From sequence record OP744025: 64,000 bases of DNA, one strand, 5' to 3'. The DNA comes from Escherichia phage A5-4. The position numbers were made by a program, and so were the translations under genes. This document shows positions 3,792-59,783 of the stretch, in pieces (the first letter of the stretch is position 1; every line of letters begins with the position of its first letter). Under the pieces are notes generated by a model. The model had not been told where the DNA came from, made no database searches, and saw only the letters and a program-made list of their open reading frames with translations.

Positions 3792-3795
3792 TCTC

Positions 3796-3824
3796 TTGAC
3801 AACGAAAAACAGTTAACTTAATAT
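3796..3824 (+). promoter_or_regulatory. sigma70-like promoter upstream of HNH gene
   Basis: TTGACA, 17-nt spacer, TAATAT. Confidence 0.55.
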
Positions 3825-3827
3825 AAG

Positions 3828-3854
3828 GGCATCTCGAAAGAGGTGTCCTTTTTT
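3828..3854 (+). terminator. terminator-like hairpin with T6 between promoter and HNH start (possible attenuator)
   Basis: GGGCATCTC-GAAA-GAGGTGTCC stem-loop followed by TTTTTT. Confidence 0.45.
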
Positions 3855-3866
3855 AATTTGGAGAAA

Positions 3867-18105: not shown

Positions 18106-18357
18106 ATGATCGAACAAATCAAAACTACGACGGCTAACGTAACGGGTACAATATCGCACTTTATTAGTGATGAATCGCGGGGCGTTCCTTATTGTGCAGT
18201 ACATGTAAACAAAAATGGCGACTACTGGTTAACGGCGTATGGATCTTATTCTTTCGGACGTAGTGCACACCAAAAGATCCTGGATAAAGTACAACCAACG
18301 GGTAAAAATATTACCGCTGAGATGTTTAATAAATCACTTGCAAAGTTAAAAGCGTAA
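18106..18357 (+). CDS. hypothetical small early protein
   Basis: cassette 18025-18084 upstream. Confidence 0.55.
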   Translation: MIEQIKTTTANVTGTISHFISDESRGVPYCAVHVNKNGDYWLTAYGSYSFGRSAHQKILDKVQPTGKNITAEMFNKSLAKLKA

Positions 18358-18397
18358 AGTATAATACATCACATCAGGCGGGGAGTGTTTCCCCGCC
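18338..18397 (+). promoter_or_regulatory. promoter + 5' stem-loop cassette
   Basis: TTGCAA, 16 nt, TATAAT, ACATCACATCAGG, hairpin GGCGGGGA-GTGT-TCCCCGCC. Confidence 0.6.
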
Positions 18398-18418
18398 ACA
18401 AAATGAAAGGCCAACAAA

Positions 18419-18598
18419 ATGAAATCAAGCATGATGGTAGCGACTGTAAACATTATCATTGGTAACGGAACTGGACACCACGAAATCATAAAAAACAAGG
18501 CTTACTCTATTAGCTCCCTCAAAAACGACATGCGTTTATCTTTGGGCCAAATCCGCGCTTACTTTCGTGAAGGCTATCAGAAAAAAGTAGCAAATTAA
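18419..18598 (+). CDS. small hypothetical protein (59 aa)
   Basis: cassette 18338-18397 upstream; not in track. Confidence 0.4.
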   Translation: MKSSMMVATVNIIIGNGTGHHEIIKNKAYSISSLKNDMRLSLGQIRAYFREGYQKKVAN

Positions 18599-18601
18599 TA
18601 G

Positions 18602-18630
18602 TTGACGCAAAGGTCATTTTAATTTAATCT
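18602..18630 (+). promoter_or_regulatory. sigma70-like early promoter
   Basis: TTGACG, 17 nt, TAATCT. Confidence 0.45.
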
Positions 18631-18658
18631 ATAACAAATCGACAAATGAGGCATAATC

Positions 18659-18961
18659 ATGTTTACCAAAGCAAATGAGTATTTCTTTTTAGATTTACTT
18701 GATGAAAGTATCTTTGTAGCTATGGGCAAAAAGTCAATGGTCTTTAAACGCAAAAAAGATAATGGTGACTTTGAAGATAGCGAAGCCGTGCTAACAGTCA
18801 AGGAAGGTAGAGATCCTGCTACGTCTGTTTTAATCTACACCTTGACCAACGGCGGTGAAGTTATCGCATCAGGTAGTAGCCATCCGATCCCAAAATCGGA
18901 AGTGAACACTGTAATTATTGGTTTTGTTGTAGCTTGTTTCTACGAGGAAAAAAGCAAATGA
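18659..18961 (+). CDS. hypothetical small early protein
   Basis: promoter 18602-18630; GAGG RBS. Confidence 0.55.
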   Translation: MFTKANEYFFLDLLDESIFVAMGKKSMVFKRKKDNGDFEDSEAVLTVKEGRDPATSVLIYTLTNGGEVIASGSSHPIPKSEVNTVIIGFVVACFYEEKSK

Positions 18962-35396: not shown

Positions 35397-35636
35397 TCAA
35401 TCCTTAATCACGTAGAATCCTGATTCGTTCATCAGGACAAAGGACTTGCCGAAGAAATCCTTACGATTATCCAAAACAAGGTAGAATCTTCGCTCAGACG
35501 AGAGGTGATGTGGGTCAGCCATATAGCTTACCCTCGCCGTCATGCCCTTATTCTTGCCCCTCGTGATCCTTACCCTTGTACCATTCTCATATTTAATAGA
35601 CACCGAACCTCCCTTGCAACTCTTTATGAACCGCAT
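35397..35636 (-). CDS. hypothetical protein
   Basis: ORF track. Confidence 0.5.
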   Translation of the reverse strand: MRFIKSCKGGSVSIKYENGTRVRITRGKNKGMTARVSYMADPHHLSSERRFYLVLDNRKDFFGKSFVLMNESGFYVIKD

Positions 35637-36096
35637 CTAATCCTGGCTTCAGTTTTGGAAGATCTCTTATAAACTCAGGGTATAGGATATTAACGAACTC
35701 AATCTCATCATCAGTAGGCTTTTGGGTATCTTCAAAATACTCGTCAAGATTGAATATCTGCCAATCCTTATGCCTTGCCTTTCGTATAGCTATGAAGATT
35801 TCATTGTTGCAGGTAGCCATCCAGGAAATCCTAGAACCTTCACCTTTACCACTTGGTAGTGTGGAAACACAGAAGCGTGGTACTTCCCGAACCTTAAAAC
35901 CCTCGTCATAGTATCCACGACCACGTTGAAATTTAAACTTGGTCTTCCCCACTCTCTGACTAATCTTCATGTCACGACGAAAGCTGTGGTCAGAAGTATA
36001 AATAAGTGGCCTAATGTATCCCGTATGACGGATCTTTTTCCAATTCCAATCTCGAATCAGTATCTCATAAACTTCCTTAAATGCTTCATACGCCAT
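35593..36096 (-). CDS. hypothetical protein
   Basis: 167 aa ORF track. Confidence 0.55.
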   Translation of the reverse strand: MAYEAFKEVYEILIRDWNWKKIRHTGYIRPLIYTSDHSFRRDMKISQRVGKTKFKFQRGRGYYDEGFKVREVPRFCVSTLPSGKGEGSRISWMATCNNEIFIAIRKARHKDWQIFNLDEYFEDTQKPTDDEIEFVNILYPEFIRDLPKLKPGLDAVHKELQGRFGVY

Positions 36097-36325
36097 CGAA
36101 CGATTCCTTATCTAGAGCACCAACAATCTCGAACTTTGCTACGCCTAAAACAACCACATGACCCAAGGATTGTACACCTGTCCACGGAGTACCATTCCTC
36201 TTAGGTCGCTTACCAGTTACATCGCAGAAATCATTCCGCATTTCTGTTGCATCAAACAACTCGCCTTTCGGAAAAACATCTTTGAAGTCAGCGATCACGT
36301 TAAGACATTTCAGTTTCATATTCAA
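36086..36325 (-). CDS. hypothetical protein
   Basis: ORF track. Confidence 0.5.
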   Translation of the reverse strand: MNMKLKCLNVIADFKDVFPKGELFDATEMRNDFCDVTGKRPKRNGTPWTGVQSLGHVVVLGVAKFEIVGALDKESFDGV

Positions 36326-36644
36326 ACACTCCTCTCTCTAATCTTTGTTTGGCAAGTAACTCCCTTTGTGCTCTAAGTGGCATCCTGAAAAATATCACAA
36401 CATTCTCCAAATCTGCCGCCCGTTTTTTAAGCTCTTTGGTGAATTTACCTTCCCGCTTAATTGCATCGTATATCTCTCTATACTCATATTCGATAGAGTT
36501 GTCTTCAAATATCCGGTTGGCGACCATATTATCAATCTCCATACCGATAGCTTCAAAGCTATACCAGTCTACATGTTCTTCTGTAACAGGACCTCTTTCT
36601 TTGTACACTTGTCCAGTTATTTCATTAACTACGATCGTTGTCAT
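36300..36644 (-). CDS. hypothetical protein, paralog family C
   Basis: start moved to ATG 36644 with AAGGAG RBS; shares FFRMP motif with 36625-36933. Confidence 0.5.
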   Translation of the reverse strand: MTTIVVNEITGQVYKERGPVTEEHVDWYSFEAIGMEIDNMVANRIFEDNSIEYEYREIYDAIKREGKFTKELKKRAADLENVVIFFRMPLRAQRELLAKQRLERGVFEYETEMS

Positions 36645-36933
36645 TGGAGTATCTCCTTGCATTATACGGCATCCTGAAAAAGTTTAAAAGGTTGTAGATA
36701 GCAGCAACCCTCTCTCTTACCTTTTCGTCAGAGAAACAATCAGGACCTTCGCTGCAAAGTTTAAAATCTATATCTTCCCACTCAGCGACCACAGATTCGT
36801 CTTCGAAAACTCCCTTTTCAAACATCATTCGAATCTCCATCTCCATACCCTTGAAGATTGTAAAAGTAACATCTTCAGGATCAAGGTATGATACATTGTC
36901 TATAAAGAGGCCCCTTTCGGGATAAATGACCAT
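36625..36933 (-). CDS. hypothetical protein, paralog family C
   Basis: track start is GTG 36969; ATG 36933 after AGGAGG preferred. Confidence 0.5.
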   Translation of the reverse strand: MVIYPERGLFIDNVSYLDPEDVTFTIFKGMEMEIRMMFEKGVFEDESVVAEWEDIDFKLCSEGPDCFSDEKVRERVAAIYNLLNFFRMPYNARRYSNDNDRS

Positions 36934-37057
36934 ATGCAAAATAATCCTCCTGTGTCCAATATAATCCACCCAGAAGCGATTTTGACGAGGTTTTCTTAAG
37001 ATAATGATAAATCACCTTACCTCGTCGTAGACCTCGTTAGAATCGTTCTGAGAGCGT

Positions 37058-37309
37058 TTAAGCCATACCGAGCAAATTCATCTCTTTTAACAGGCCTTCC
37101 AAGGTAGCATTAAACAACACTGGCTTGCCTTCCTCCAGCTTATTGAAGAAGATTTCATGAGTTTCATTATCTATCTTCTCCATCTCTTTTACCACTTCCT
37201 CTGACAAAAAGATATCACTACCTTTTAAACCAGGAAACATCAAGAGAATTGCAGTTTTTGCATTTGTTGCCCAACCCTGACCACCATTCAGACTGAATAT
37301 CTTAATCAT
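37058..37309 (-). CDS. hypothetical protein
   Basis: start moved to ATG after GGAGG (track start 37390 overlaps upstream gene by 89 nt). Confidence 0.45.
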   Translation of the reverse strand: MIKIFSLNGGQGWATNAKTAILLMFPGLKGSDIFLSEEVVKEMEKIDNETHEIFFNKLEEGKPVLFNATLEGLLKEMNLLGMA

Positions 37310-37610
37310 CATTTTCCTCCAAATTAACCAGTGCAGTTCGGACTTCAAGAAGAGTTGCTGCCCTTGCCTCGTTTCTCTCTGAGAAATCACGAATCATCAT
37401 CTTGTACTTCATTTCTTCTTCAGTACGAAGAATTTTCTGTTCGATCAGTTTGTAAACTTGGCCTGCTCTTTCTGGAAACAACGCTGCAAAGAGATTCCAA
37501 TCTTCCAATCTACCTTCGTAAGACTCTCCAGAAGTAAAGTACCGATCTCTTTCGATACTGTCAACAAAATAGTAGCCGAATTCACCATAACGCCAAGTTT
37601 CATTTTTCAT
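37302..37610 (-). CDS. hypothetical protein, paralog family D
   Basis: paralog of 37772-38011 (YFTS-x-EGR-EDW motif). Confidence 0.55.
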   Translation of the reverse strand: MKNETWRYGEFGYYFVDSIERDRYFTSGESYEGRLEDWNLFAALFPERAGQVYKLIEQKILRTEEEMKYKMMIRDFSERNEARAATLLEVRTALVNLEENDD

Positions 37611-37768
37611 TTGATGTACCGAGCAGCAGCCGTACCGATAAGGAAGCCAGCAGGAACTGCGACAATGATAGCTTCAATCATTTTAAGATCTGCTGCAACA
37701 CATGCTGCACCAACAACAACAGAACCAGCCCAGATAGCAATTACACGTTTCAAAAATTTAGTATTCAT
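37607..37768 (-). CDS. small membrane protein (53 aa)
   Basis: not in track; hydrophobic (AIWAGSVVVGAACVAA, IVAVPAGFLIGTAAA); ATGA overlap with next gene. Confidence 0.4.
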   Translation of the reverse strand: MNTKFLKRVIAIWAGSVVVGAACVAADLKMIEAIIVAVPAGFLIGTAAARYIK

Positions 37769-37771
37769 TCG

Positions 37772-38011
37772 TTAGTCTCCTGATTTTGTTAAGTTTTCTT
37801 TTATTTTTACGTACTCGATTAAAGATTTTGCGAGATCACCATCGATTTTCTCACAAACCATGAGTATCTCTCTTACCTTTTCGGGATGAACAGATTCATA
37901 AAATTTCCAATCCTCTGTTCTCCCCTCTGTGGTTTGGGAAGTGAAGTATTCTTCTCTGTCTCGCTCCGGTAAGAGATAATATACAAGACTTAGCTTCCTC
38001 TCGTCAAGCAT
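37772..38011 (-). CDS. hypothetical protein, paralog family D
   Basis: ORF track. Confidence 0.55.
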   Translation of the reverse strand: MLDERKLSLVYYLLPERDREEYFTSQTTEGRTEDWKFYESVHPEKVREILMVCEKIDGDLAKSLIEYVKIKENLTKSGD

Positions 38012-38020
38012 TTTATCACC

Positions 38021-38392
38021 TTATTCGTAAAAAACCTTATCCGCTTGTTCTTTTAACCAACCCCGTCGGAAAGCACTCTTAAGTATTTCTGCCCACTTCG
38101 GATTTGCTGCCTCTAAGAGAAGTACCTCTTCTTTCTCTATGTTCATAGGATCAGCAAAGAAATCCAAAATCTCCTCATTGAAGACACCCTCTATCAAGAT
38201 CCCTTTATATTTCAACGTCAAAAGTTTTGCCATAAAACCTTGAGATATTGCTCCCTCTCTATCAATTGTCGTAGTTGGGGGATTTGGAAAAGGGAAACCC
38301 TGCATCGGTGTTGGTGATGCACCTGTCTTCACAAAAGTGTTCCCGCCAGTGTTATTGAAGAAACCTTTCATATTTTTATCGTACAATGACAT
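38021..38392 (-). CDS. hypothetical protein
   Basis: ORF track. Confidence 0.5.
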   Translation of the reverse strand: MSLYDKNMKGFFNNTGGNTFVKTGASPTPMQGFPFPNPPTTTIDREGAISQGFMAKLLTLKYKGILIEGVFNEEILDFFADPMNIEKEEVLLLEAANPKWAEILKSAFRRGWLKEQADKVFYE

Positions 38393-38831
38393 TTTCTACC
38401 CTCTCTTGAATTTTTATCTCTGCCTCATCTAAAGCTTCCCCCATTGCAAGGATATACCTTGAAATTTCAGGGAACAACGCTTCAAACATCTCTATCTCCT
38501 CTTCAAGTATATCTGTTGGATCGAAGAAATACTCTTCAAGGACTATTCGCTTTGTCACGATCTTGTTGCCGTAAGTAACAAAAACGAAACGATCAGGTTT
38601 CCCAATAGAATCTTTGGAGGTTCTCCATTGGAAAAGATGCCTGTTTGAACTTATGTTTATCCTTTTGTCAGCCTTGTCCAGCGGGATTCTAAAACTTACG
38701 GATGCTGACATTCCTTCGGATTGAGTCCATTTTTCACTCTTCTTAAAAATATTGTTCCGGTATCTGTTTTTACCTAAGGCATTAAAAGTCCACTGCCTGC
38801 TCAATCTCTCGATTATCTCTTTAGTTTTCAA
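38376..38831 (-). CDS. hypothetical protein
   Basis: ORF track. Confidence 0.5.
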   Translation of the reverse strand: MKTKEIIERLSRQWTFNALGKNRYRNNIFKKSEKWTQSEGMSASVSFRIPLDKADKRINISSNRHLFQWRTSKDSIGKPDRFVFVTYGNKIVTKRIVLEEYFFDPTDILEEEIEMFEALFPEISRYILAMGEALDEAEIKIQERVENVIVR

Positions 38832-39379
38832 AACGGTATGTCCTCGTCAACAATAAATTTTATAGCATTCTTTACAGCCGCTTTATTCAGATGTTGAACA
38901 CGCTGGAAGAACATTAGGTTCAAGTCAAGAAGAATATCATCATCTCCGTACAACGCCGTGAAAAGATCAAGCTCTTCATCTGTCGGATGCGTGGGATTCT
39001 CAAATAAGCCCTCAAACACCACCTGGGCCTCATTTCTTTTAGCCAGCGTGGTTGAGTCTCGATAGATATTTAATACCGTGTGTACATCATCTACGCTTAG
39101 GATTTTGACACATTCCAGATCTCCTGTGTCACCATCGAGATAAAGAGTGATCGCAGGAGTTGACCAATTTGATTCACTTATTGCATAAACGTAGATGCTT
39201 TTGCGATTACCAACTGCAATAGACTCTTCAATTTTCTTTTCTGCCGCCTTAAAGAAAGGTTGGTGTTTGATCCAATGCTCCCAACCAATCCAACGAGCAC
39301 CCTTACCATACGCATTCAGCACATGATTCTCAATGTTACGTTTACTCTTTAAAACCTCCATAAAAGAAAAGCCAGCCAC
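38828..39379 (-). CDS. hypothetical protein
   Basis: 183 aa; 4-nt overlap. Confidence 0.55.
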   Translation of the reverse strand: MAGFSFMEVLKSKRNIENHVLNAYGKGARWIGWEHWIKHQPFFKAAEKKIEESIAVGNRKSIYVYAISESNWSTPAITLYLDGDTGDLECVKILSVDDVHTVLNIYRDSTTLAKRNEAQVVFEGLFENPTHPTDEELDLFTALYGDDDILLDLNLMFFQRVQHLNKAAVKNAIKFIVDEDIPF

Positions 39380-40013: not shown

Positions 40014-40039
40014 ACCTATGGACCAGATCTGACCCATAG
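40014..40039 (-). terminator. terminator-like hairpin
   Basis: CCTATGG-12nt-CCATAGG inverted repeat just downstream of gene ending at 40061; moderate T-richness. Confidence 0.35.
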
Positions 40040-40060
40040 GCTATACCTTAATGTGAAATT

Positions 40061-40639
40061 TTATTCATTTCCCCGATATTTTTGAATTGCGATCGAAGTC
40101 CTTGGTTCAGCCAGTCCAGTTCCATATGCATACCATTTGCCAGTGAGTGTTTTTCGAGCACCGTAGGACCCAATCTCCATGTCGTCACAATAAACATCGT
40201 AACCGATCGGGGTCTTAACTAAAAAGAGTACATTACGAGGAATCCCTAAGAGGGTAAACATCGATATGGCATCTTTTGCGATCTCGTGAGAAATCTTCTC
40301 TGCATTCTTTTTACTGGTTGCACTTCTAAACAGTTCCATCTTTAAGAAGATATTGAAATGAATATCATCAAGAACCATCTCATCACGGAAGCATGGGGTC
40401 ACAGCCATCCAACTGCCATCTTCCAACTTCCCTTCTTTGTCGAGTTGGAGGAATGATTGCTCTGCGGAAGCCACTGCATATTTCCCGTTCTGGACAATTC
40501 GAAGATCAGTAACATCTTCGGGGCATGTATGATCCATAGCATCATCATCCACATAGCTTGGGACAACCTTATCATTGAAACCTTTACATTTCCACCAACT
40601 GTGGGCATCAATAAACAATGTGAAGTCGATGTTTGACAT
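40061..40639 (-). CDS. class-II aminoacyl-tRNA-synthetase-like (AsnA/AspRS motif-2-like) protein
   Basis: TPCFRDE resembles the GPCFRNE motif of class IIb aaRS/AsnA catalytic core; only about 190 aa; start moved to ATG 40639 (GAGG RBS). Confidence 0.35.
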   Translation of the reverse strand: MSNIDFTLFIDAHSWWKCKGFNDKVVPSYVDDDAMDHTCPEDVTDLRIVQNGKYAVASAEQSFLQLDKEGKLEDGSWMAVTPCFRDEMVLDDIHFNIFLKMELFRSATSKKNAEKISHEIAKDAISMFTLLGIPRNVLFLVKTPIGYDVYCDDMEIGSYGARKTLTGKWYAYGTGLAEPRTSIAIQKYRGNE

Positions 40640-40640
40640 T

Positions 40641-41144
40641 TTAGCCTCGCTTACCATTCTGGAATGCACGTTTAGTAATTTTTGACATAACCATCAGGTC
40701 TTCTATTGAAGTGCTTGGATGATACTTATTCAGGTAGGCTTCCATAGCGCCGACCAGATCAGAAAGCTCTACCAACTCCATGATCTTACATTTTTGTTTA
40801 GCTGCATCCTTGAGTTCATCAAGTTCTTCTTGAATCTTAGTGATCTCTCCAAGCTCTCCGCGAGGGAAAGTATCCAGATGATAACCAGGTTTTTGTTCTT
40901 CAATGCCCTCATGTCCGACAACACGAAATTTTCCGGCAGCGAAACGCCAAACACCTTCAAAATACACAATGTAATGTTCCGACTCTGCAATGAAGATAGT
41001 GTCGAAATTTTTAAATTTAAAAAATCCTTCGATAAGATTATCTTCTGTACTGAAACTTCCTAAGAAGTTGAGTTCTTGCTCCGTATGAAATTCCATAACC
41101 ATATTTTCGTTCTGGAGTTTCGTCAGCAATTTTAAAATTTTCAT
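40641..41144 (-). CDS. hypothetical protein, possible MazG-like all-alpha NTP pyrophosphohydrolase
   Basis: EELDELKDA ... ELVELSDLVGAMEAYL pattern; start moved to ATG 41144 with AAGAGGAGAG RBS. Confidence 0.3.
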   Translation of the reverse strand: MKILKLLTKLQNENMVMEFHTEQELNFLGSFSTEDNLIEGFFKFKNFDTIFIAESEHYIVYFEGVWRFAAGKFRVVGHEGIEEQKPGYHLDTFPRGELGEITKIQEELDELKDAAKQKCKIMELVELSDLVGAMEAYLNKYHPSTSIEDLMVMSKITKRAFQNGKRG

Positions 41145-41155
41145 TTTCTCTCCTC

Positions 41156-41644
41156 TTATGGGCAACACCGTGGAGATCTTCCACAGAAGAATTGCCAATT
41201 GGTTTCTGAGTCTTTGTAATTTACAAACCCTATCCTTCCGCACCCTTTCCCACTACAAACCGCTTCACGAGGATGATAGTCTATACTGCAAGAGTGGGGA
41301 TGATCAAACGCTTCTCGTATTTCAACACAGAGTCTACTTAACCAAGCGAACATTTTTGGCATAGAAGCTTCAAGGAGTTTAAGTTCATCGACCGTAGGTT
41401 TGTCTTTCTCCATGAAGAAGTCATTTATCTCGGAAAACAAAATCACGTTTTGAACTATACCGCTGCTTACCTTGTAAGAGAACTCCTCAGTAAGTCTCAC
41501 AGTAACTTCCTCTATCAATTCTTTTTCATTATCTTGATCTTTTGCTAATCTTTCTTCAATCCATCGGATAACGAAGAATCTTTCTCTCTGAACATCCATG
41601 TTCAAAGTATTGATTATTTTTTCATAGATTAGGTTTCCTTCCAT
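41156..41644 (-). CDS. hypothetical protein with C-terminal Cys/His cluster
   Basis: HPHSCS...CSGKGCGRIG...CGRSPRCC. Confidence 0.5.
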   Translation of the reverse strand: MEGNLIYEKIINTLNMDVQRERFFVIRWIEERLAKDQDNEKELIEEVTVRLTEEFSYKVSSGIVQNVILFSEINDFFMEKDKPTVDELKLLEASMPKMFAWLSRLCVEIREAFDHPHSCSIDYHPREAVCSGKGCGRIGFVNYKDSETNWQFFCGRSPRCCP

Positions 41645-42756
41645 ACCTTGTCTTGTGCCTCCAGGATAAGTTTTTCAACAATCTTCAGATCTGTTTTCTT
41701 TGGTAAGCTCGATTGCTTATAAAGAACATCTGTGATCATTTTATCTTTTTCTTCAGCCCAGTCAACAATTTCTTCATAGCGGTATTCACCATTTCGGATT
41801 GCGAGGAGTTCTTCAGCGTCTGGTCGATTAACTAAAACTTTACCTTCTGTGAGGATTTCTTCACCCATCCGAAGAAGCCGGACCAAATGCATAGCATGTT
41901 TAGTGTCGTAACCGAACTTCTCTTCCAGTTCATGACGCTTCTCGTTACGATTCTTAACCCATTCCCAATAGTTGTGGTGTTTCTCCTTGGCCCATTTATG
42001 ATCGTCAGCACAATACTTAACAATCATCAGTGTCTTACCTCTTTTAACTTCATCTGGGATTTCTTCATAGTCCAGCTTACGGATAGAACCATCTTTGTTA
42101 AACATAGGTTCAACATTTTCACGACGATCCTCTACAACGCCGTAAATGTTACTGCCGTAATGAACCAAAGTACAGAAGCCTTCCATGTTTTTAAATTTAC
42201 GAACAAAGTCTTCGTACTTCAACTCACCTTCTCCGAGATAGCTCTGCACCAGACGGAAATAGTCAAATTGAGTTGGTGGCTCTTTTGGTTGCGGATTATT
42301 AATGTGTTTGTTGTGACCCTTGATCCGCTTTAACTGAGACATTGCATAACCACTGAAGCGAAATGCAACTTCACGAGACAGTAAGGAGTAGAAATGTTCT
42401 TTCATCTCTTTCCAAGCTTCGTGCTCGTACAATGTGGCTTTCGGATCAGTAAAACCCAGTTCAATGATATTTGGGTTCATCTTCGAAAACAGTTGAAGGA
42501 AAGTTCCCAATTCGTAGATCTTGGCATCCTCTTCACCAGGGATGTTTAATTCAGTAACCTCTTTGAATGGGGTACGAACCACATTTGGGGTTGCAACAAA
42601 AACCCCACGGATATCAATATCACTACCTTCGTTATTCGTACCATACGCATGAGATCCTGCCAGACTCAACATCAGTACCTTCGCCACGTCTGGATGATTT
42701 TCCATCTTCTCTACGATACTTTTTACCTTTCCAGCACTCACAACTGAATTTTCCAT
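41629..42756 (-). CDS. Pol-beta superfamily nucleotidyltransferase
   Basis: LAGSHAYGTNNEGSDIDIRGV = G-S-x10-D-x-D NTase signature; 375 aa. Confidence 0.65.
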   Translation of the reverse strand: MENSVVSAGKVKSIVEKMENHPDVAKVLMLSLAGSHAYGTNNEGSDIDIRGVFVATPNVVRTPFKEVTELNIPGEEDAKIYELGTFLQLFSKMNPNIIELGFTDPKATLYEHEAWKEMKEHFYSLLSREVAFRFSGYAMSQLKRIKGHNKHINNPQPKEPPTQFDYFRLVQSYLGEGELKYEDFVRKFKNMEGFCTLVHYGSNIYGVVEDRRENVEPMFNKDGSIRKLDYEEIPDEVKRGKTLMIVKYCADDHKWAKEKHHNYWEWVKNRNEKRHELEEKFGYDTKHAMHLVRLLRMGEEILTEGKVLVNRPDAEELLAIRNGEYRYEEIVDWAEEKDKMITDVLYKQSSLPKKTDLKIVEKLILEAQDKVWKET

Positions 42757-42846
42757 TTATCCTCCAATCATGTAAGTCACACAAGCCAACCCAGTTGGCC
42801 TGTTTAATCTTTATAAAGTTTACGCAGCTTGTGCAGTCTTTTTTAT

Positions 42847-43242
42847 TTATAGGCATTTCACACCATAAATGATCATCAATACAACAAGTGTCAGTGTATA
42901 GATCAAACTCCCATAAAGTCCATGACTGGTGATTTTAAGCTTTTTCTTAAAGCACATCATTGTACTATAAATTACACCAGTCCAGTGAATCACTAAAATC
43001 GCGGTGGCAATATCTGAAACATTACCCGCCCAAAGCATCAAAGAGTATGAGAGGTACATTGCAAAACCTGATAGTAGGAATGTAAACAAATAACCAATTA
43101 CACTTTTCTTTTTCTGATCTACGATTTTATTTTTCATGGTATCGATGTTCAGATTGTAATAGGCAACTGCCACTATCTGGATAATCAGCCCCAAAATAAA
43201 GAAAGAGATCAGTGTAACGTATTCAAAAATTGGTGCAGTCAT
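42847..43242 (-). CDS. membrane protein (about 4 TM helices)
   Basis: 131 aa with four hydrophobic segments. Confidence 0.55.
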   Translation of the reverse strand: MTAPIFEYVTLISFFILGLIIQIVAVAYYNLNIDTMKNKIVDQKKKSVIGYLFTFLLSGFAMYLSYSLMLWAGNVSDIATAILVIHWTGVIYSTMMCFKKKLKITSHGLYGSLIYTLTLVVLMIIYGVKCL

Positions 43243-43640
43243 TATAATTTCTCCTCAATAATTTCAGAAATGAGATTCGAGATCTCGAAAGTTTCTAACT
43301 CTTCGACGTGTGACAAGCGCTGGAGGCGCTCGATAACAAAGTCTTTCTTCACAAACACATCCGACAGATGCTCAATGTCCTGCTTACCACGCATTCCGCT
43401 AACCAACTGCTTGTATCGGATGAGTTCAATATACTCCTCTTTAGACATTACTGTCAAGCGTTCATCTGCACAAATATGCAAAAATACTTGCTTGCTGTCC
43501 CAGTCAAATCCTCTGTACACTGCCTCTACTTCACGGCGTGGTGTCCCGCCCAGTGTTACATGACCAACCTCAACAGGGATAGATACCTGATCATCAGGTC
43601 GGCACTGCTGCAACTCCTCAATCAATTCAGATACTTTCAT
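43242..43640 (-). CDS. hypothetical protein
   Basis: ORF track. Confidence 0.5.
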   Translation of the reverse strand: MKVSELIEELQQCRPDDQVSIPVEVGHVTLGGTPRREVEAVYRGFDWDSKQVFLHICADERLTVMSKEEYIELIRYKQLVSGMRGKQDIEHLSDVFVKKDFVIERLQRLSHVEELETFEISNLISEIIEEKL

Positions 43641-43642
43641 AG

Positions 43643-44098
43643 TTACCCCTGTTTAAGCTTAAAAGATTTAAAGGCTTCGATAAAGTCCATTTCTTTTTGC
43701 GTGTATTTGTGGTCAATTGTATCAGAGAAAAGAGGGCAACGACCATCAACCAACTTCACATCCCACAGATGTTGAGGGAGAATAAATGCAATGGCTGTAA
43801 GTGCACCATTCAAAGAATCATTCTCCTCGCAGAAAAATGCGTAAGGAATCTTCTCTATGTTTGGAGCTAAAAATCCTTCTGCAAAATTAAGCATCTTCGA
43901 TTGATAGCCTCCGTTCAACAAGATCATTGTTTGGTCTTTGCTTTGCCACTGATCTACAAGGTTGTATCTGTCATCATATCGATCGGCATAGGCAAATCCA
44001 TAATGACCTACAAGGTTTGCTGCTGCATGTGCTGCTTGGATACCTGCTTGGATTCCCATCATGTAGCTGTTTACCAATACGTACATCCGAGTTTTCAA
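43643..44098 (-). CDS. peptidyl-tRNA hydrolase PTH2-like protein
   Basis: VLVNSYMMGIQAGIQAAHAAANL and NGALTAIAFILP resemble PTH2 core motifs; motif-level only. Confidence 0.45.
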   Translation of the reverse strand: MKTRMYVLVNSYMMGIQAGIQAAHAAANLVGHYGFAYADRYDDRYNLVDQWQSKDQTMILLNGGYQSKMLNFAEGFLAPNIEKIPYAFFCEENDSLNGALTAIAFILPQHLWDVKLVDGRCPLFSDTIDHKYTQKEMDFIEAFKSFKLKQG

Positions 44099-44415
44099 TT
44101 CTTACCTCCAAAAATTCGTTTTGCAAACTTTTCATTACCAATCGTTAGATTATAAACAACCATAGTTGAATAAACAATCCACGCAAGAGCATAAAACAAA
44201 ATCAAGAAAGGCCACCCTACAAACCAGAATACAGTCATTATTAACCAACCTAGCATCAGGAGTTTATAATTAACATTTCCGTGATTTAAAGGGTCGAGTA
44301 AGTTACTGTTTTCTGGCAAAGGGATACGAAACCCGCCCTGGCGAAGCTTGATTAACAAGAACCAAGCGGCAGAACTTATAATGCAACATAAAATATACGT
44401 TAATAAACTTGTCAT
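44095..44415 (-). CDS. membrane protein, paralog family E
   Basis: tandem paralog of 44412-44741 (WFLLIKLRQ-GF-IP-P, TIGN-K). Confidence 0.55.
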   Translation of the reverse strand: MTSLLTYILCCIISSAAWFLLIKLRQGGFRIPLPENSNLLDPLNHGNVNYKLLMLGWLIMTVFWFVGWPFLILFYALAWIVYSTMVVYNLTIGNEKFAKRIFGGKN

Positions 44416-44741
44416 TTTTTAACCCCAAAGATCTTAGTTAGTAATTTATCATTCCCTATAGTAAGGCCACATAAACTTTTTATACCGAACACCAAGTACG
44501 ACCCAATTGTAACACAGATAATAATTGGGTAAACAAGATACCAGAAGAATGTTGCACATAGCCAACCAACCATGACCATACGTAAATTTACATTTTCATT
44601 GTTCAGGGGTTCTAGGATATACAGGTCTTCACTATCCTTGGGGAAGGGGATGTTGAACCCCTTCTGCCGTAATTTGATCAATAAGAACCAAAGTGGACAA
44701 CTGATCAAACAACCTATTAAATAACCTTCAACCATTTTCAC
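44412..44741 (-). CDS. membrane protein, paralog family E
   Basis: ORF track; 4-nt overlap. Confidence 0.55.
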   Translation of the reverse strand: MKMVEGYLIGCLISCPLWFLLIKLRQKGFNIPFPKDSEDLYILEPLNNENVNLRMVMVGWLCATFFWYLVYPIIICVTIGSYLVFGIKSLCGLTIGNDKLLTKIFGVKK

Positions 44742-45978
44742 TCTCCTTCAACTTGTCAAGGTATTGTGTAACGTATCTTACTTTTACATTTCGGATTCTG
44801 CTCTTGATCTCATTTGGACGTCCCGCGAATTTTTCAGAAATCTCTTTACTTTCTTTTGAGATTGCAACACTGTTCTGGATAATCCCTGCCAGTGCTGAGA
44901 ATAATACCAAAGGCTGAGTGTAACTGTCAAACATTTTTTCAGGACCACGACCACGAGAATCACAGATGCAAGCATCAATGAATTCAGAAAGGAATGCTTG
45001 GTCCTTTTCACCACGTAAGGCTACTAACAAGTCATAAACTTTCTTCGGCTTCATTTCTTTGATACGGTGGAGTCGCGTATGATGCTCAGTCACAGCTAAA
45101 GCCAACTTCTTCCAACTATTGGGGACACCAAAGCGATCACAAACTTGTTCAGTTAACTTGATACCGTGCTCTTCGTGACCGTGCAGTTTACCCGTTACCC
45201 AGTAAATACATTTACCTAAGTCGTGACACAGAACTGCCCACTTCACAGCTTCACTTGCACGAGTCGCCTGGGCATAATCCATGCAAAGTAAAGTGTGAAC
45301 AAATGCATCACCTTCAGGATGGTGCTCCTTGGGTTGAACAACATCGTATAAATCCACAAGCTCAGGAAATTCTCCCAGTTGAGTCAACATACGGATCATT
45401 ACCGAAGGTTTATTCATTTCTGACTGATCACTAAAGCATTTCTTAATCTCTGCAAATTTACGCTCTTTTGGAAGTGCACTTAAGTCTACATTTTGGCACA
45501 TTCCCCAAGTGTCATGATCAATTGTAAACTCACCGCCGTATCGGGCGTGTAGTCTGGCTAATCGGTATACACGTAAAGGGTCTTCGATAAATGCTTTAGT
45601 GGATACACAACGTAACCGACTATTTTCAATATCAAGTACACCACCACAAGGGTCAATAATTTCACCCGTGGAAAGATCCTTGGCAATAGCATTAATGGTC
45701 AAATCTCTTCGCATCAGATCTTGTTCGATTGTAACGTCTGGAGAGAACACAACCTCGAAGTCGTGATAACCAGGGCCTGTTGATCTTTCTGTCCGAGCAA
45801 GAGCGTACTCTTCTTTGGTGTCTGGTTCAAGGTACACAGGGAAAGCTGCACCAACCTTAGTGAATCCTTTTTCAATCATCTCTTCGTGGGTCGCACCAAC
45901 AACCACGTAGTCTCGATCCTTACTTTCAACGCCCATTAGTTCATCACGAACTGCTCCACCTACCAAGTAAACTTTCAT
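44728..45978 (-). CDS. cca: tRNA nucleotidyltransferase (CCA-adding enzyme) with C-terminal HD domain
   Basis: MKVYLVGGAVRDELMG N-terminal head motif, later HDLGK; start moved to ATG 45978 with AAGAGGAGAAAG RBS. Confidence 0.8.
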   Translation of the reverse strand: MKVYLVGGAVRDELMGVESKDRDYVVVGATHEEMIEKGFTKVGAAFPVYLEPDTKEEYALARTERSTGPGYHDFEVVFSPDVTIEQDLMRRDLTINAIAKDLSTGEIIDPCGGVLDIENSRLRCVSTKAFIEDPLRVYRLARLHARYGGEFTIDHDTWGMCQNVDLSALPKERKFAEIKKCFSDQSEMNKPSVMIRMLTQLGEFPELVDLYDVVQPKEHHPEGDAFVHTLLCMDYAQATRASEAVKWAVLCHDLGKCIYWVTGKLHGHEEHGIKLTEQVCDRFGVPNSWKKLALAVTEHHTRLHRIKEMKPKKVYDLLVALRGEKDQAFLSEFIDACICDSRGRGPEKMFDSYTQPLVLFSALAGIIQNSVAISKESKEISEKFAGRPNEIKSRIRNVKVRYVTQYLDKLKESENG

Positions 45979-46238
45979 ACTCTTTCTCCTCTTAAGTTTA
46001 AAGACCAATCTTTTATTTCTTCTTTCCAGTTTGTATTTCTCTCAATGTCTTGCTTTTGACCACGAAGATAGTTGATGATCTCAAGCGGGTCTTGCTTAAC
46101 AAAAGAAATATTATCGATCGGACACTCAACTAACTTAAGCATCCTTTCAAAACGATTATACTCATCTTCTGACTTTGATGCAACAGGAATAACATCGTAA
46201 TCTTCAAGATTATTGAGAGTTTCAAGAGTGACCTTCAT
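45975..46238 (-). CDS. hypothetical protein
   Basis: start moved to ATG 46238 (GAAGG RBS); ATGA overlap with cca. Confidence 0.45.
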   Translation of the reverse strand: MKVTLETLNNLEDYDVIPVASKSEDEYNRFERMLKLVECPIDNISFVKQDPLEIINYLRGQKQDIERNTNWKEEIKDWSLNLRGERV

Positions 46239-46357
46239 CTCGTAACCTTCTAATTTCTTTGTCTTGATACCAAACACTCTTCGAAAGTAAATGTAATATT
46301 TCATTATGTTCTCCTAGTTGATGACTATCATTATACACATCTATGAATTCAAGTCAA

Positions 46358-46393
46358 TAAAAAAAAAAAAAAAAAGGCCACCCGAAGGTGACC
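46358..46393 (-). terminator. strong rho-independent terminator after methyltransferase gene
   Basis: minus strand hairpin GGTCACCTTCGGGTGGCC followed by T18. Confidence 0.75.
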
Positions 46394-46400
46394 TTTAAAT

Positions 46401-46910
46401 TTAAGGGTGAATCCAGTAAAAAGGTTTTGTTAAACCAAGTTTACCTTTTTTATCCCAAATAAAATAACCATATGCTGCACCATCTGTTTTACCATCGTCA
46501 GTAAAAGAAGGTCGCTTAGATAAAGTAACTAAGTGATCAACAGGGTATTGCTTCCAGAACTCAACACGTTTGGTACTCTCAAGGAAACCTAAACGAAGAA
46601 GCATGATCACTACATCAGCATCCTTGTGCGCTTTTTCTACAAACTCTTGAGCTAAATTGTAAGGTGGATTAGTTAACACACAATCTACCTTATTGTATTT
46701 AGTTGCAAGATAATCAACACCTTCTTGAATCTCTCCCCAGGCTGAACCAATTGGCATTTCATTATAAAAACTTCCAGAGGCTCTGCAAGGTTCCAGATAA
46801 GTCCAATCCTGACGGATTGGAACTAAATTCAAGAAAGCATCTACTGCCCATTTCGGAGTTTCATAGCGATCATTTTCACGGCGCTCTGCTTTAGGTTTCA
46901 ATGCTGCCAC
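46401..46910 (-). CDS. phage-type DNA N6-adenine methyltransferase
   Basis: EPCRASGSF (motif I-like) and TNPPY (motif IV); 169 aa. Confidence 0.7.
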   Translation of the reverse strand: MAALKPKAERRENDRYETPKWAVDAFLNLVPIRQDWTYLEPCRASGSFYNEMPIGSAWGEIQEGVDYLATKYNKVDCVLTNPPYNLAQEFVEKAHKDADVVIMLLRLGFLESTKRVEFWKQYPVDHLVTLSKRPSFTDDGKTDGAAYGYFIWDKKGKLGLTKPFYWIHP

Positions 46911-46912
46911 TC

Positions 46913-47758
46913 TTATTTGCCCCCTTCTTTCGCCGCAGTGATGATCTGTTCAATTAACTCGTCACGATAATAAACGTACTGTTCAACACCGAAACATTCC
47001 GCAATCTCGTCTAGTTCGTCGAGGTTGTACTCGTCAAAGTCTCGTGGGTTAAGAGTAAAGATGTTGAATTTTTTGGCGTAGCCTTCGTCGAGGACGATTT
47101 CAAATTCTCCCTCTCCGATTTCCTTCGCATCATCAACATCACTCGATTCGATTGACCCTTCAACCTTAATCCCCCCTGTATTTTGTTGATCGGCTTCCAT
47201 TTGCTTTTTAATTGCTTCATCTTCAGCGGTCAAACGGGCTTGCATCTGAGAGGAAGTGAAGTAAATTTCGCCAGCACGATCAAACAGTTCAACGAGTTCA
47301 TCTTCTGTCATAACACCCTTGTACAGATCGTAGTATTTCTCTTTGAACAGGTCTTTGTAGAAATCGCTACGTTTAAATACCAGCGCCGAGTCACCACCCA
47401 TACTCATCTGAACGTTGTGGAACATATAATGAGAACCTGGACGACAAATTCGAACATGACCAGATAAGAAGATCATTGTTGCAGCACTTGCCACTTCACC
47501 AATGCCGTGTGTCACAACAGTCGCCTTAGCTTCAGAGATCGCTGTCATGTACATATCTGCGATATCACAATAACCACCGCAAGAAGTAATGTATAGATTT
47601 ACAATATCACCTTCTGGTGCTGAACGAATCAGATCAACAGCCTCAATATGTGCTTCAGGTGAGTTGTGCAGATCGGTAACATAGATACGCCAATCGTTAG
47701 AAGTTACTGGAGATACCCAAATGTTTTTTGCTGGACCATTCATTACGATTTCTTCCAT
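46913..47758 (-). CDS. ClpP-family serine peptidase with C-terminal extension
   Basis: ITSCGG, GEVASAAT and MFHNV align with ClpP catalytic regions; 281 aa. Confidence 0.65.
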   Translation of the reverse strand: MEEIVMNGPAKNIWVSPVTSNDWRIYVTDLHNSPEAHIEAVDLIRSAPEGDIVNLYITSCGGYCDIADMYMTAISEAKATVVTHGIGEVASAATMIFLSGHVRICRPGSHYMFHNVQMSMGGDSALVFKRSDFYKDLFKEKYYDLYKGVMTEDELVELFDRAGEIYFTSSQMQARLTAEDEAIKKQMEADQQNTGGIKVEGSIESSDVDDAKEIGEGEFEIVLDEGYAKKFNIFTLNPRDFDEYNLDELDEIAECFGVEQYVYYRDELIEQIITAAKEGGK

Positions 47759-47770
47759 ATTAATTCCCCC

Positions 47771-48241
47771 TTAGCTGATTAAAGTACGGATGCGGGTAGC
47801 GTTTTGCAGAACCCAGTCTACTACGATAGAATGGTCAGAGTCAACAATTACTTCATGATGACGTTTGAACATATCAAGAATCTTTGCTGCTTCGGCAGTA
47901 TAAAGTGCCGCACGATCTAAAAAGATAATCTGCTCTTTAAGTTCTTCTGTAATCGGACATAACTTACTTGGGACCTTGATGGCTGACAAATGTTCTACCA
48001 ACTCTTTTCGAGTAGAGAACATAATATCAACCTCCTGATCGATACTAAGAGAGCCTAAGAATAAGCGAGAAAACCATCCACGATACTCATCGTTGTTTTT
48101 ACGCAAAGTCTTAATTCCAAATATTAACTCTTCGAACAGGGCTGTTGCAATTTCTTCAATACGATCAGGAACAATAGCCCCACAATTTTTCAATTCCATC
48201 AGTTTACGATGATCAACTGTTGCGTACATACCCTTATCCAT
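47771..48241 (-). CDS. hypothetical protein
   Basis: ORF track. Confidence 0.5.
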   Translation of the reverse strand: MDKGMYATVDHRKLMELKNCGAIVPDRIEEIATALFEELIFGIKTLRKNNDEYRGWFSRLFLGSLSIDQEVDIMFSTRKELVEHLSAIKVPSKLCPITEELKEQIIFLDRAALYTAEAAKILDMFKRHHEVIVDSDHSIVVDWVLQNATRIRTLIS

Positions 48242-48249
48242 ATCACCCC

Positions 48250-48567
48250 TTAAATTCCGATTAAATATTTAAACTTCCCGTCGTTCTCTGCGATCTTGTG
48301 GATTACATAGAACCAATTTTCAATTCCGTCTTCATCTTCCTCTTTCACACGATCACCAGTTTTCAACTCAACCTCGGAAACGTACTCCTTACTTTCAAGA
48401 AAATACTTCCACTGAACCATGTCTTTAAAATTACAGATTAGTTTATTTTTGCCATCTGTCGTCCAAAGGTCCTGATTGACCCACATACCAACAACGAAAT
48501 TCTTTTCTTTTTTAGGACGACCAAGTGCATAAGTGTTGTTTAACATCTTTGCTTTATCTAAGACCAC
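48250..48567 (-). CDS. hypothetical protein
   Basis: ORF track. Confidence 0.5.
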   Translation of the reverse strand: MVLDKAKMLNNTYALGRPKKEKNFVVGMWVNQDLWTTDGKNKLICNFKDMVQWKYFLESKEYVSEVELKTGDRVKEEDEDGIENWFYVIHKIAENDGKFKYLIGI

Positions 48568-49171
48568 GTTTTGACTCCAAGTTAACTAAGAAATTCTCAA
48601 GCACTGTGATGTTGTCTTCTTTCCAAAGATTAAGTGTTCTTACTCCACTCTTCTTTGCAAGATTGACTGCTGTAGCAGTGCCGCCCTTGGGATTGCCCGT
48701 TCTTGTTTCCTTTGCGTAGTATATCACAAACTTACTTTGCATCAAGTATGCATTTGAAAGATTTTTACCAAAAATCTGGTGTACGTTTCTTTCGTGCAAC
48801 TTCCTTGCCCCCTGACTCAACTTATCCCAACCACCATGAACTTCCTTTATCCATTCCCACCTCATTTCCTTATGTTCTGGAAATTCTATATCAATCGCGT
48901 TTAGTGAGATATTATACAGATCTTTAAGTCCCTGTCCACCTTTAAAGTTGTCCCAAGGAACATATACCTCTGCAAGTTTGCTCGGCGATTGAGCCATATT
49001 ACAATCTTCATGAAACCTCTGCATACCCCTTTGGAAGGCTGCATCTGCACCACCTGCACCACCAGATCGTAATGTGTACCCAACCCTTGCTAATCTCCAA
49101 CCTGCATCTTCCATAATTTTTAATATTTCTTCAGGAGTCTCCCTTGAACCTATTCCTGTATAAGCTGGCAC
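48554..49171 (-). CDS. DprA/Smf-like Rossmann-fold (SLOG) protein
   Basis: GIGSRETP and SGGAGGADAAFQRG match DprA core motifs; start moved to GTG 49171 with AAGGAGG RBS (track start overlaps nrdG by 100 nt). Confidence 0.55.
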   Translation of the reverse strand: MPAYTGIGSRETPEEILKIMEDAGWRLARVGYTLRSGGAGGADAAFQRGMQRFHEDCNMAQSPSKLAEVYVPWDNFKGGQGLKDLYNISLNAIDIEFPEHKEMRWEWIKEVHGGWDKLSQGARKLHERNVHQIFGKNLSNAYLMQSKFVIYYAKETRTGNPKGGTATAVNLAKKSGVRTLNLWKEDNITVLENFLVNLESKRGLR

Positions 49172-49172
49172 T

Positions 49173-49655
49173 TTAACCTCCTTCATCTTCAGTTGACCAG
49201 TACCCATTAACTTTTTTCCAAAGCCTTTGGTTATCTGATCCCCTGAATCTTTTAGTTGTAGGTTTGTTTTCATTATACTTACCGTCCATGATTAAGTCAA
49301 CGTGTTTCTTTATTTCCTCATCCAAGTCTTCAAAAAGATACCCTGTCCACACCATGATATCTTTACTCTCACCAAAGCACAACTTTACTTCCTTGATGAT
49401 TCTTTTTACAATATCAATATTCTCAGGGTCAAGAGGTTCTCCACCCATAATTGACAATCCACTGATAAAGTTTCGAGAAAGATCTTTTTTCAATCTCTCC
49501 ATATCTTCATCTGTGAATTCTTTTCCATACCTGTATGACCAAGCCTTTTGGTTAAAACAGCCTTTGCACTTATGGCTGCATCCACTAACCCACAGGGAGG
49601 TTCTTACACCCTCCCCGTTGATGAAGTCTGTGCTTTCATACCCGCAGATGTTCAA
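49173..49655 (-). CDS. nrdG: anaerobic ribonucleotide reductase activating protein
   Basis: radical-SAM CSHKCKGC near N-terminus; directly downstream of nrdD with 4-nt overlap. Confidence 0.85.
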   Translation of the reverse strand: MNICGYESTDFINGEGVRTSLWVSGCSHKCKGCFNQKAWSYRYGKEFTDEDMERLKKDLSRNFISGLSIMGGEPLDPENIDIVKRIIKEVKLCFGESKDIMVWTGYLFEDLDEEIKKHVDLIMDGKYNENKPTTKRFRGSDNQRLWKKVNGYWSTEDEGG

Positions 49656-58760: not shown

Positions 58761-59783
58761 TTATTTTGCAACATGTCCAGGAATTAACTGACGATGTTGA
58801 ACAAACCCTTTCAGGTTACCACTCCAGAAGTTACCGTCGCGATCTACGTGAGTAATGCCTTCTTCCCAAGATTCTGGACACCACGGCACGTTCACCATGC
58901 TCTGCCCTTCTTCAACATCCTCACACGTTTCCTGGATCTCCTTCGCCTGATGCTCGAATGGAGAAGCGTGAACCTTTTTACCCGATACAAGCTTGGCATA
59001 AATATCCAGAGCCTTATCTTTCGTATTGTTAAGACGACGATAACTTACCTGCCCACAACAAGAGGAAGAGATAGACAAAGCTTCTTCTTCAGACAGCATA
59101 ATATGATTACCATCTTCATCCTGTACACAATACCCTGCGAAAATATGTCCATCGCCCAAAGGTCCAGAGTCGAAGCAATGATCTACGTAAGGAGTATGCC
59201 ACACCCCAGGCTGTAACCATTCTGGAGTAGAAGCTTTATAAGCTTCGTGCATTTTCTTAGCCAATACTTCGATCGTTGGATCTGCATCTGCATCAACACG
59301 TAGCCAGAAGAAGTTTTCAAATTCCGTTGCTGTAACGATAGTCTTCATCATCTGGAACGGTTCGATCAATCGGTTAGCAATCTGCTTATGGAACCCTGCC
59401 GTCTCGAAACGTTCTGCCCATTCACAGGCATTTTCCGCAGCCTTGGCCCAAGCTTCTCGTCCGGTACAGTACAGTTCATGACACACGCCACTTGTATCTT
59501 CCACCCAATCATACCATACTTTACCATCATGTTCTGTTCCTTTATCCTGCATACCAGGTTGGTTAGCACCAAATCGAACAGGCATTGCCATATTTTCACG
59601 GATCAGTTTAACCATTGTCTTGATCGGCACTGCACGAGAAGACATTGCATTTCGGCTAAACAGTCGGTGCGTCATAAGTTCTGAGTGAATGAATCGAGGA
59701 TAGGTCAATTCAAACGTGGTGATACGAGCTTTACTACGATAGCCAACAGAATCTGCAATAATACGGGCTTCAATCATGGACAT
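58761..59783 (-). CDS. thyX: ThyX-family (flavin-dependent thymidylate synthase-like) protein, atypical
   Basis: THRLFSRNAMSSR matches ThyX signature RHR-x7-S except first Arg is Thr; FFW motif; 340 aa, longer than canonical ThyX. Confidence 0.55.
   Translation of the reverse strand: MSMIEARIIADSVGYRSKARITTFELTYPRFIHSELMTHRLFSRNAMSSRAVPIKTMVKLIRENMAMPVRFGANQPGMQDKGTEHDGKVWYDWVEDTSGVCHELYCTGREAWAKAAENACEWAERFETAGFHKQIANRLIEPFQMMKTIVTATEFENFFWLRVDADADPTIEVLAKKMHEAYKASTPEWLQPGVWHTPYVDHCFDSGPLGDGHIFAGYCVQDEDGNHIMLSEEEALSISSSCCGQVSYRRLNNTKDKALDIYAKLVSGKKVHASPFEHQAKEIQETCEDVEEGQSMVNVPWCPESWEEGITHVDRDGNFWSGNLKGFVQHRQLIPGHVAK

Follow-up and report, generated by a model that had tools for sequence, protein, structure and literature searches.

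Phage enzymes that undo host damage to tRNA are known from T4, in which Pnkp and Rnl1 counter PrrC by healing and sealing the broken anticodon loop. Weapons that target tRNA include anticodon nucleases, PARIS, retron-Eco7/Septu, toxSAS enzymes that pyrophosphorylate the CCA end, and Cas12a3, which cuts tRNA tails. For jumbo phages, RlaP, a CCA-adding enzyme and PTH2 have been listed as genes for RNA repair and ribosome rescue (PMC7824862). A CCA gene was also annotated in Certrevirus genome papers, which describe it simply as influencing the tRNA pool, and rV5 is without such a gene (PMC7344957). According to a preprint, purified RlaP adds one or two nucleoside monophosphates to damaged RNA 3′-OH ends, and RlaP is needed to restore aminoacylation of heavily damaged, repaired tRNA (PMC12776372). 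Here, we analyzed a group of genes at positions 40061-45978 in a 64-kb stretch of Escherichia phage A5-4 (sequence record OP744025; the whole stretch of 64,000 nucleotides is called the window). An initial annotation had grouped a CCA-adding enzyme, a Pol-beta nucleotidyltransferase, a PTH2-like hydrolase and a short protein resembling class II aminoacyl-tRNA synthetases (aaRS) from this region as one tRNA-maintenance set. On balance, we favour a different arrangement, in which an early unit of a Vequintavirinae phage carries two accessory modules with separate functions: module A for tRNA end repair and recycling (Cca, RlaP and the PTH2-fold protein), and module B consisting of the aaRS-like protein and its neighbour g2.

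The phage infects Escherichia coli, has a genome of 140 kb, belongs to Septuagintavirus within the Vequintavirinae, and is 96% identical to Escherichia phage A73. The region matched Escherichia phages A73, W70 and LTH01 at 95–96% and UPEC06 at 93%, and Septuagintavirus sv54 encodes a protein identical to the PTH2-like one. Nearly all window genes from ~27 kb on are located on the minus strand, including every gene named in 40061-45978, at the coordinates given in the initial annotation. Neither tRNA genes nor, in an Rfam search, structured RNAs were found in the window. Gene neighbourhoods were compared in two samples, with sequences clustered at 50% identity and proximity defined as a distance of at most 5 kb. 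The first comprised 61 loci with a PTH2-like gene (27 clusters). The second, which also served as control, comprised 80 diverse viral loci from similar large phages (48 clusters) with a homologue of the aaRS-like protein (29–48% identity, contigs of 9 kb to 578 kb). Fold searches were run against BFVD; single-sequence PDB searches of window proteins were uninformative, and plain Pfam and NCBIfam scans gave no match for the PTH2-like protein, g2, g3 and the membrane genes.

The gene at 44728-45978 (minus strand) encodes a bacterial-type (class II) CCA-adding tRNA nucleotidyltransferase that has an HD phosphohydrolase domain in its C-terminal part. Pfam detected PolyA_pol (PF01743, E = 5.9e-20) and HD (PF01966, E = 4.3e-08, residues 238-326). 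The NCBIfam model for the multifunctional CCA addition/repair protein (NF008137) aligned over residues 11-417 of the protein and 1-404 of its 409 positions (E = 2e-113), with a score of 379.3 bits that lies under the equivalog cut-off of 451. PHROG 2244 also matched (2.9e-132), and the translation contains motif A (GGAVRD..DRD), motif B (RRDLTINA), motif D (EDPLRVYR) and the HD motifs. A poly(A) polymerase identity was rejected because PcnB scored 79 bits, compared with 379 for Cca. The enzyme thus shares with E. coli Cca the PolyA_pol head, the HD domain, motifs A, B and D and the HD residues; it differs in falling below the equivalog cut-off and in being a phage-encoded duplicate of a host function. 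In phage A73, five tRNA genes (Met, Tyr, Gly, Gln, Pro) were detected at 30424-32134 of its record (L153), which are missing from its GenBank annotation. Because all five encode CCA, a function in maturing CCA-less phage tRNAs was rejected as well, and the role of the phage enzyme would be repair, as for E. coli Cca, whose substrates likewise have an encoded CCA. Just upstream of the unit (46401-49273), the window encodes a DprA/SLOG-like protein (PHROG 768), a ClpP-like protease whose C-terminal tail is acidic, and a short DNA methyltransferase of the N6-adenine type (NPPY); ClpP-like and DprA-like genes accompany the CCA gene in related phages, too.

The Pol-beta nucleotidyltransferase of the initial annotation (41629-42756, minus strand) could be assigned to the RlaP family, as it scored 68.9 bits against PF10127 (cut-off 23). 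Like PfRlaP/PaRlaP and T4 NrdC.11, it passes the Pfam threshold and carries the Pol-beta signature (G[GS]..DxD), here GSHAYGTNNEGSDIDI. It differs from other members of the family in its surroundings, since its neighbours are Cca and a PTH2-fold protein and no RNA ligase was detectable. Searches of the window and of the complete A73 genome returned neither RtcB nor an Rnl-type ligase (query from L161; both at E ≤ 1) nor Thg1, and none is annotated; the search did not extend to the Rnl1, Rnl2 and Pnkp profiles themselves. Repair by these enzymes would therefore concern ends and acyl groups, not severed anticodon loops. This is also where the locus departs from T4: both would have phage enzymes undo host damage to tRNA, but the T4 pair acts on the anticodon loop, whereas the unit described here, in which neither a kinase-phosphatase nor a ligase was found, would target acyl groups and 3′ ends. 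One related lineage has a longer RlaP beside the PTH2-like gene (L004 11269-13368); with 699 aa, it is almost twice as long as the window RlaP.

The third enzyme, encoded at 43643-44098 (minus strand), has the PTH2 alpha/beta fold and belongs to a large, divergent phage family with 2,525 cluster representatives (50% identity) at E ≤ 1e-3. Across 188 members, Q21, H24, E91 and T101 are invariant; a partial HMM alignment to Sulfolobus solfataricus Pth2 and the hhalign register place Q21 and H24 on the AAQxxHA helix. The protein itself scored 16.4 bits against PF01981, below the gathering threshold of 23, and PF01981 weakly matched 18 of 43 family members (best E = 0.0012). The comparison of the family with PTRH2 by hhalign, for which the set consisted of vertebrate sequences only, was not significant. 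Pth2 from S. solfataricus has a catalytic lysine and a catalytic aspartate, which we take to be K18 and D86. The phage family appears to have glutamine or histidine in place of this lysine and glutamate in place of the aspartate, and it has an identity to Pth2 of ~14% and a C-terminal extension of ~40 aa, by which it differs from Pth2 (PF01981; 1wn2, 1xty) and from the PTH2 genes of jumbo phages (PMC7824862). Of the initial assignment, the fold was thus retained; as the catalytic lysine is apparently not conserved, the name peptidyl-tRNA hydrolase applies at the level of fold. Part of the active site seems to be retained, though its chemistry may be altered, and the protein may be an esterase acting on a different substrate linked to tRNA.

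Genes for tRNA-end repair were enriched near the PTH2-like genes. CCA, RlaP, Thg1 or RtcB was found within 5 kb in 12 of 27 clusters, compared with 7 of 48 in the control (Fisher p = 0.006); counted by locus, the values were 27/61 and 12/80. The arrangements vary. A lineage with 39% identity has the order CCA, two small genes, PTH2-like, one gene, RlaP; in L121-L125, CCA is located 1.9 kb upstream of the PTH2-like gene; and RtcB is found 2.7-4.6 kb away in L104 and L111. In marine phages, the order is PhoH, PTH2-like, Thg1, with direct adjacency in L006. On these contigs (L006 8508-11291, also L003, L099, L101, L102 and L107), the PTH2-like gene lies between PhoH and a Thg1-like 3′-5′ polymerase, with PrkA/SpoVR-like genes upstream and ThyA, DHFR and Acb1 downstream.

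Module B starts from the gene at 40061-40639 (minus strand), whose product was described at first as a short class II aaRS-core-like protein. That description was borne out, as motifs 1-3 are kept and seryl-tRNA synthetase (SerRS) is the closest relative. The protein has 192 aa, corresponds to a minimal class II catalytic core, and starts at this core, from residue 186 of E. coli SerRS. Invariant or nearly invariant positions are (i) P27; (ii) R85 and E87; (iii) F98, K100 and E102; (iv) E155..S158; (v) T174..R180; and (vi) S58-A-E60. In the alignment to E. coli SerRS, SAEQ corresponds to TAEV, TPCFRDE to TPCFRSE, F98-x-K100-x-E102 to FDKVE, E155..S158 to EISS, and TGLAEPR to SGLAVGR; the aligned SerRS positions are presumably the serine- and ATP-binding residues, as in the Thermus thermophilus enzyme. 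The protein lacks the N-terminal coiled-coil arm used by SerRS to bind tRNASer, and its motif-2 loop is ~6 residues shorter. Against the SerRS model TIGR00414, the score was 20.9 bits (cut-off 301). With a SerRS-type active site kept, the arm absent and the motif-2 loop short, we infer that the protein forms seryl-adenylate; it is not itself a SerRS.

The name usually given to this protein is therefore misleading. A tblastn search retrieved homologues from 274 phage records, which usually call the protein hypothetical or a 'histidyl' or 'seryl tRNA synthetase', and in the contexts examined they occurred only on phage contigs. The PHROG label, which refers to HisRS/HisZ, was rejected because SerRS was the best match by sequence and fold and because catalytic arginines that HisZ lacks are invariant; the label 'seryl tRNA synthetase' does not apply to the window protein, either. 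Other truncated aaRS paralogs are Bll0957 (3mey), AsnA, EpmA/PoxA, HisZ and GluQRS. Compared with these, the phage protein is shorter (192 aa, with most aligned PDB chains having ~300 aa or more), and its partner is a MazG/HisE-like domain instead of a carrier protein, EF-P or HisG. No carrier protein or phosphopantetheinyl transferase of the Bll0957 type was conserved beside the aaRS-like gene in the 80 loci.

The partner is g2 (40641-41243, minus strand), for which the ATG at 41144 is the likely start. Of the 80 loci, 74 have a homologue of its C-terminal 83 aa (~40644-40892; PHROG 6408) beside the aaRS-like gene at E ≤ 1e-5, and two further g2-domain neighbours appeared at E ≤ 1e-3. In L050, L085 and gp131 of Microcystis phage Ma-LMM01, the domain and the aaRS-like protein are parts of one fused protein. 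Among 43 sequences, E28, E29, E32, E48 and D51 are invariant and form the metal-binding signature EExxE...ExxD, a feature shared with the all-alpha NTP pyrophosphohydrolases MazG and HisE (PRA-PH). The best PDB profile matches were likewise MazG-like SSO3215 and HisE, although weak (E 0.033-0.6), and PF01503 was matched by 34 of the 43 members below its cut-off (best E = 2e-4). Besides these sub-threshold matches, g2 differs from MazG and HisE in the size of the domain (~80 aa), in its own invariant GYH, K25 and C-terminal F..G.R, and in its constant coupling to the mini-SerRS. The annotators of Acinetobacter phage Lazarus, working independently, called gp119 MazG-like; it is located beside a 'histidyl/seryl tRNA synthetase'. 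The pair occurs in Straboviridae, Vequintavirinae, Stephanstirmvirinae, phiCbK-like phages and jumbo phages, and a literature search returned no functional study of it. Neighbour clustering of the 80 loci revealed no third conserved neighbour beyond RlaP, which was present in eight. Six large-phage contigs (L076 8925-9830, L039 9064-10011, L041 9049-9954, L029 9154-9981, L028 8797-9615, L073 10573-11442) encode the MazG/HisE-like domain together with an N-terminal domain of ~200 aa and the motif FGLGFIQLK...HDHRY..S..L.G. By eye, this HxH-containing domain is cupin-like; it had no Pfam match and has no homologue in the window.

Upstream of g2, a gene for a 162-aa protein (41156-41644, minus strand; PHROG 12113) ends in a Zn ribbon (41162-41257; C..C..VNY..CG[GR][SG]PRCC, here CSGKGCGRIGFVNY..CGRSPRCCP). 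All Vequintavirinae-like loci have the ribbon beside the pair; in P0111 and P0116, the aaRS-like protein carries it as a C-terminal fusion. In other relatives, it is found in the gene downstream of the aaRS-like gene, e.g. L158 9005-9097. Module B would hence be a tightly coupled pair, in which a MazG/HisE-like pyrophosphohydrolase accompanies a minimal adenylate-forming core of the SerRS type; in this lineage, the Zn-ribbon protein is linked to the pair. The pair would activate serine with ATP and pass it to some acceptor. An acceptor related to tRNA is possible, as 17 of the 80 aaRS-like genes have tRNA genes within 5 kb and RlaP adjoins the pair in several jumbo phages (within 5 kb in 5 of 48 clusters, including L029, L039, L041 and L053). 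Tentatively, the mini-SerRS and its partner may represent a phage-specific serine-activating system without a tRNA arm, having a new product or acceptor and forming a new class of aaRS paralogs. Possible products or acceptors would then be a seryl-nucleotide, a nucleic-acid base or a protein; the system might also work directly at the 3′ end of a damaged or toxin-modified tRNA.

Both modules are contained in 12 genes on the minus strand between two hairpins, from ~46330 to 40014. The upstream border is an intrinsic terminator-like hairpin (46373-46396; 10-bp stem, GGGT/TTCG loop, T16 run) directly 3′ of the DNA methyltransferase gene. It is followed by a sigma-70-type promoter-like site (46330-46357; TTGACT-16-TATAAT, 11 of 12 positions by consensus match), AGGAG, and an ATG at 46304. 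At the other end, a terminator-like hairpin (40014-40041; 12-bp stem, weak T-run ATTTTCT) is located 20 nt 3′ of the aaRS-like stop codon. Genes in between overlap or abut; the stop codon TAA of g2, for instance, is separated by one base from the ATG of the aaRS-like gene. The flanking hairpins, the promoter-like site and this spacing make it plausible that the 12 genes form one early-type transcription unit. The single operon proposed in the initial annotation is thus supported by gene arrangement and by signals that are consensus matches, the promoter-like sites being not enriched over shuffled sequence. Further upstream are genes for aerobic and anaerobic ribonucleotide reductases, a thymidylate-synthase-like protein and PhoH, in addition to the methyltransferase, ClpP-like and DprA-like genes.

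The remaining members of the unit, all on the minus strand, are small. The first gene (45975-46304) encodes a 109-aa protein of PHROG 12008 with no assigned function. Downstream of the CCA gene follow two small membrane proteins with ~3 transmembrane segments (TM) each (paralog B at 44412-44741, PHROG 17692; paralog A at 44095-44415), which are 43% identical (E = 1e-31). A 132-aa protein of PHROG 12566 with no assigned function (43242-43640) is syntenic in Vequintavirinae-like relatives, and a 131-aa membrane protein of PHROG 12739 (42847-43242) has ~4 TM. The tandem membrane paralogs and the 4-TM protein had been noted correctly before; 40641-41243, 41156-41644, 43242-43640 and the first gene had gone unmentioned.

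As a plausible concept, the proposed grouping as a tRNA-maintenance set holds for three of the four enzymes. Cca, RlaP and the PTH2-fold protein share one apparent early unit, show the linkage described above, and are members of families that are known or proposed to act on tRNA or RNA 3′ ends or on acylated tRNA. This set does not include the aaRS-like protein, which belongs with its neighbour at 40641-41243. In module A, Cca would rebuild a missing C-C-A, and its HD domain could clear 2′,3′-cyclic or 3′-phosphate ends. RlaP would add one or two nucleotides to damaged RNA 3′-OH ends, and the PTH2-fold esterase would release tRNAs from a blocking peptidyl or N-acyl-aminoacyl group. Acting together, the three would maintain a usable supply of chargeable tRNA during infection. 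Such repair and recycling is plausible, and the concept has already been published for jumbo phages (PMC7824862). The phage would most likely be countering host nucleases or toxins directed at tRNA 3′ ends or at aminoacyl-tRNA. Given the many tRNA-targeting defences now known, an anti-defence role of module A is a reasonable hypothesis.

Several observations weigh against this interpretation. The host already has Cca and Pth1, which leaves the need for phage copies unexplained. RlaP is defined by its association with RNA ligases, and none was found in the window or the A73 genome in the searches for RtcB and the Rnl-type. For the PTH2-like family, whose substrate may differ from that of Pth2, the register of the partial HMM and hhalign alignments puts Gln17 (87% Gln, otherwise His) at the Pth2 lysine and Glu91 at the aspartate. 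The PTH2-like gene is missing in L011-L013, RlaP in L014 and the CCA gene in rV5 (PMC7344957); such independent gain and loss among relatives speaks against a pathway that requires all of these genes. Even with clusters formed at 50% identity, the linkage counts are raised by the gene order that related large phages share, and promoter-like matches in the region are no more common than in shuffled sequence. PADLOC, whose profiles cover defence and not anti-defence, gave no match except for a generic similarity of the Cca HD domain to Cas3 HD, and literature searches turned up no published anti-defence role.

A serious rival, if a rather unlikely one, is translation housekeeping: the phage would provide more tRNA 3′-end repair and peptidyl-tRNA recycling where host Cca and Pth become limiting under late translation, drop-off and host shut-off. 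The same enzymes do such work in cells, as established for E. coli Cca, and Pth limits the growth of lambda on pth(rap) hosts. The position of the unit downstream of nucleotide-metabolism genes (RNR, ThyA, PhoH) is typical of auxiliary metabolic regions, and the description of the Certrevirus CCA gene fits the same explanation (PMC7344957). What speaks for damage repair rather than ordinary turnover is the association of the PTH2-like family with Thg1 and RtcB, together with the preference of RlaP for damaged RNA ends (PMC12776372); moreover, the genes are dispensable among close relatives. By another explanation, unrelated accessory genes share an early promoter because of the way phage genomes are organised, and annotation has produced the tRNA theme by coincidence. 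Individual genes were lost independently among relatives, 5 of the 12 genes are without assignable function, and early regions of large phages hold many nucleic-acid enzymes. A coincidence is nevertheless improbable, considering that the PTH2-like genes are found near four kinds of tRNA-end repair enzyme, with differing gene orders and in several lineages, and more often so than the control set.

Equally improbable is a single pathway of all four enzymes grouped in the initial annotation, in which the mini-SerRS would re-aminoacylate the repaired tRNAs. It would agree with the location in one transcription unit, with an active site that looks competent for seryl-adenylate formation, and with the tRNA genes and RlaP near some of the pairs. 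However, within the 80 aaRS-like loci, CCA, the PTH2-like gene and RlaP were near the aaRS-like gene in just 6, 2 and 8 cases, respectively, mostly close relatives. The aaRS-like protein is missing the arm for binding tRNASer and has the shortened motif-2 loop, no tRNASer is included in the five tRNAs of A73, and the invariable partner is a pyrophosphohydrolase-like domain and not a tRNA enzyme. We therefore retain the reading of two separate modules within one early unit.

Other genes of the window and of A73 are listed for completeness. At 35593-39379, five small paralogs with no assigned function (35593-36096, 37302-37610, 37772-38011, 38376-38831 and 38828-39379) share the C-terminal motif ..E[DE]..[LF]F.ALFPE.. 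and were linked by jackhmmer. Three tandem paralogs with RCC1-like repeats (PHROG 4219) are encoded at 30211-33742 (30211-31353, 31363-32607 and 32510-33742). The region 2562-5899 encodes a protein of 409 aa without a Pfam match, followed by a 512-aa protein with DUF2201 metallopeptidase-like and VWA-like domains. The thymidylate-synthase-like protein (58761-59783) has 340 aa and is longer than typical ThyA. In phage A73 (L153), a gene for a NADAR-domain protein is located at 18204-18848.

tRNA is a major battleground between bacteria and phages. A unit of Cca, RlaP and a PTH2-fold protein without a ligase would be a compact test bed for asking whether phages repair tRNA 3′ ends rather than replace tRNAs or seal anticodon loops. 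The PTH2-like family, with ~2,500 representatives, has no Pfam model, and its correct naming would improve many phage annotations. The pair of mini-SerRS and MazG-like protein is the more original lead of this analysis. It occurs, misleadingly named, in at least 274 sequenced phages, and its acceptor could extend the short list of aaRS paralogs that act outside translation.

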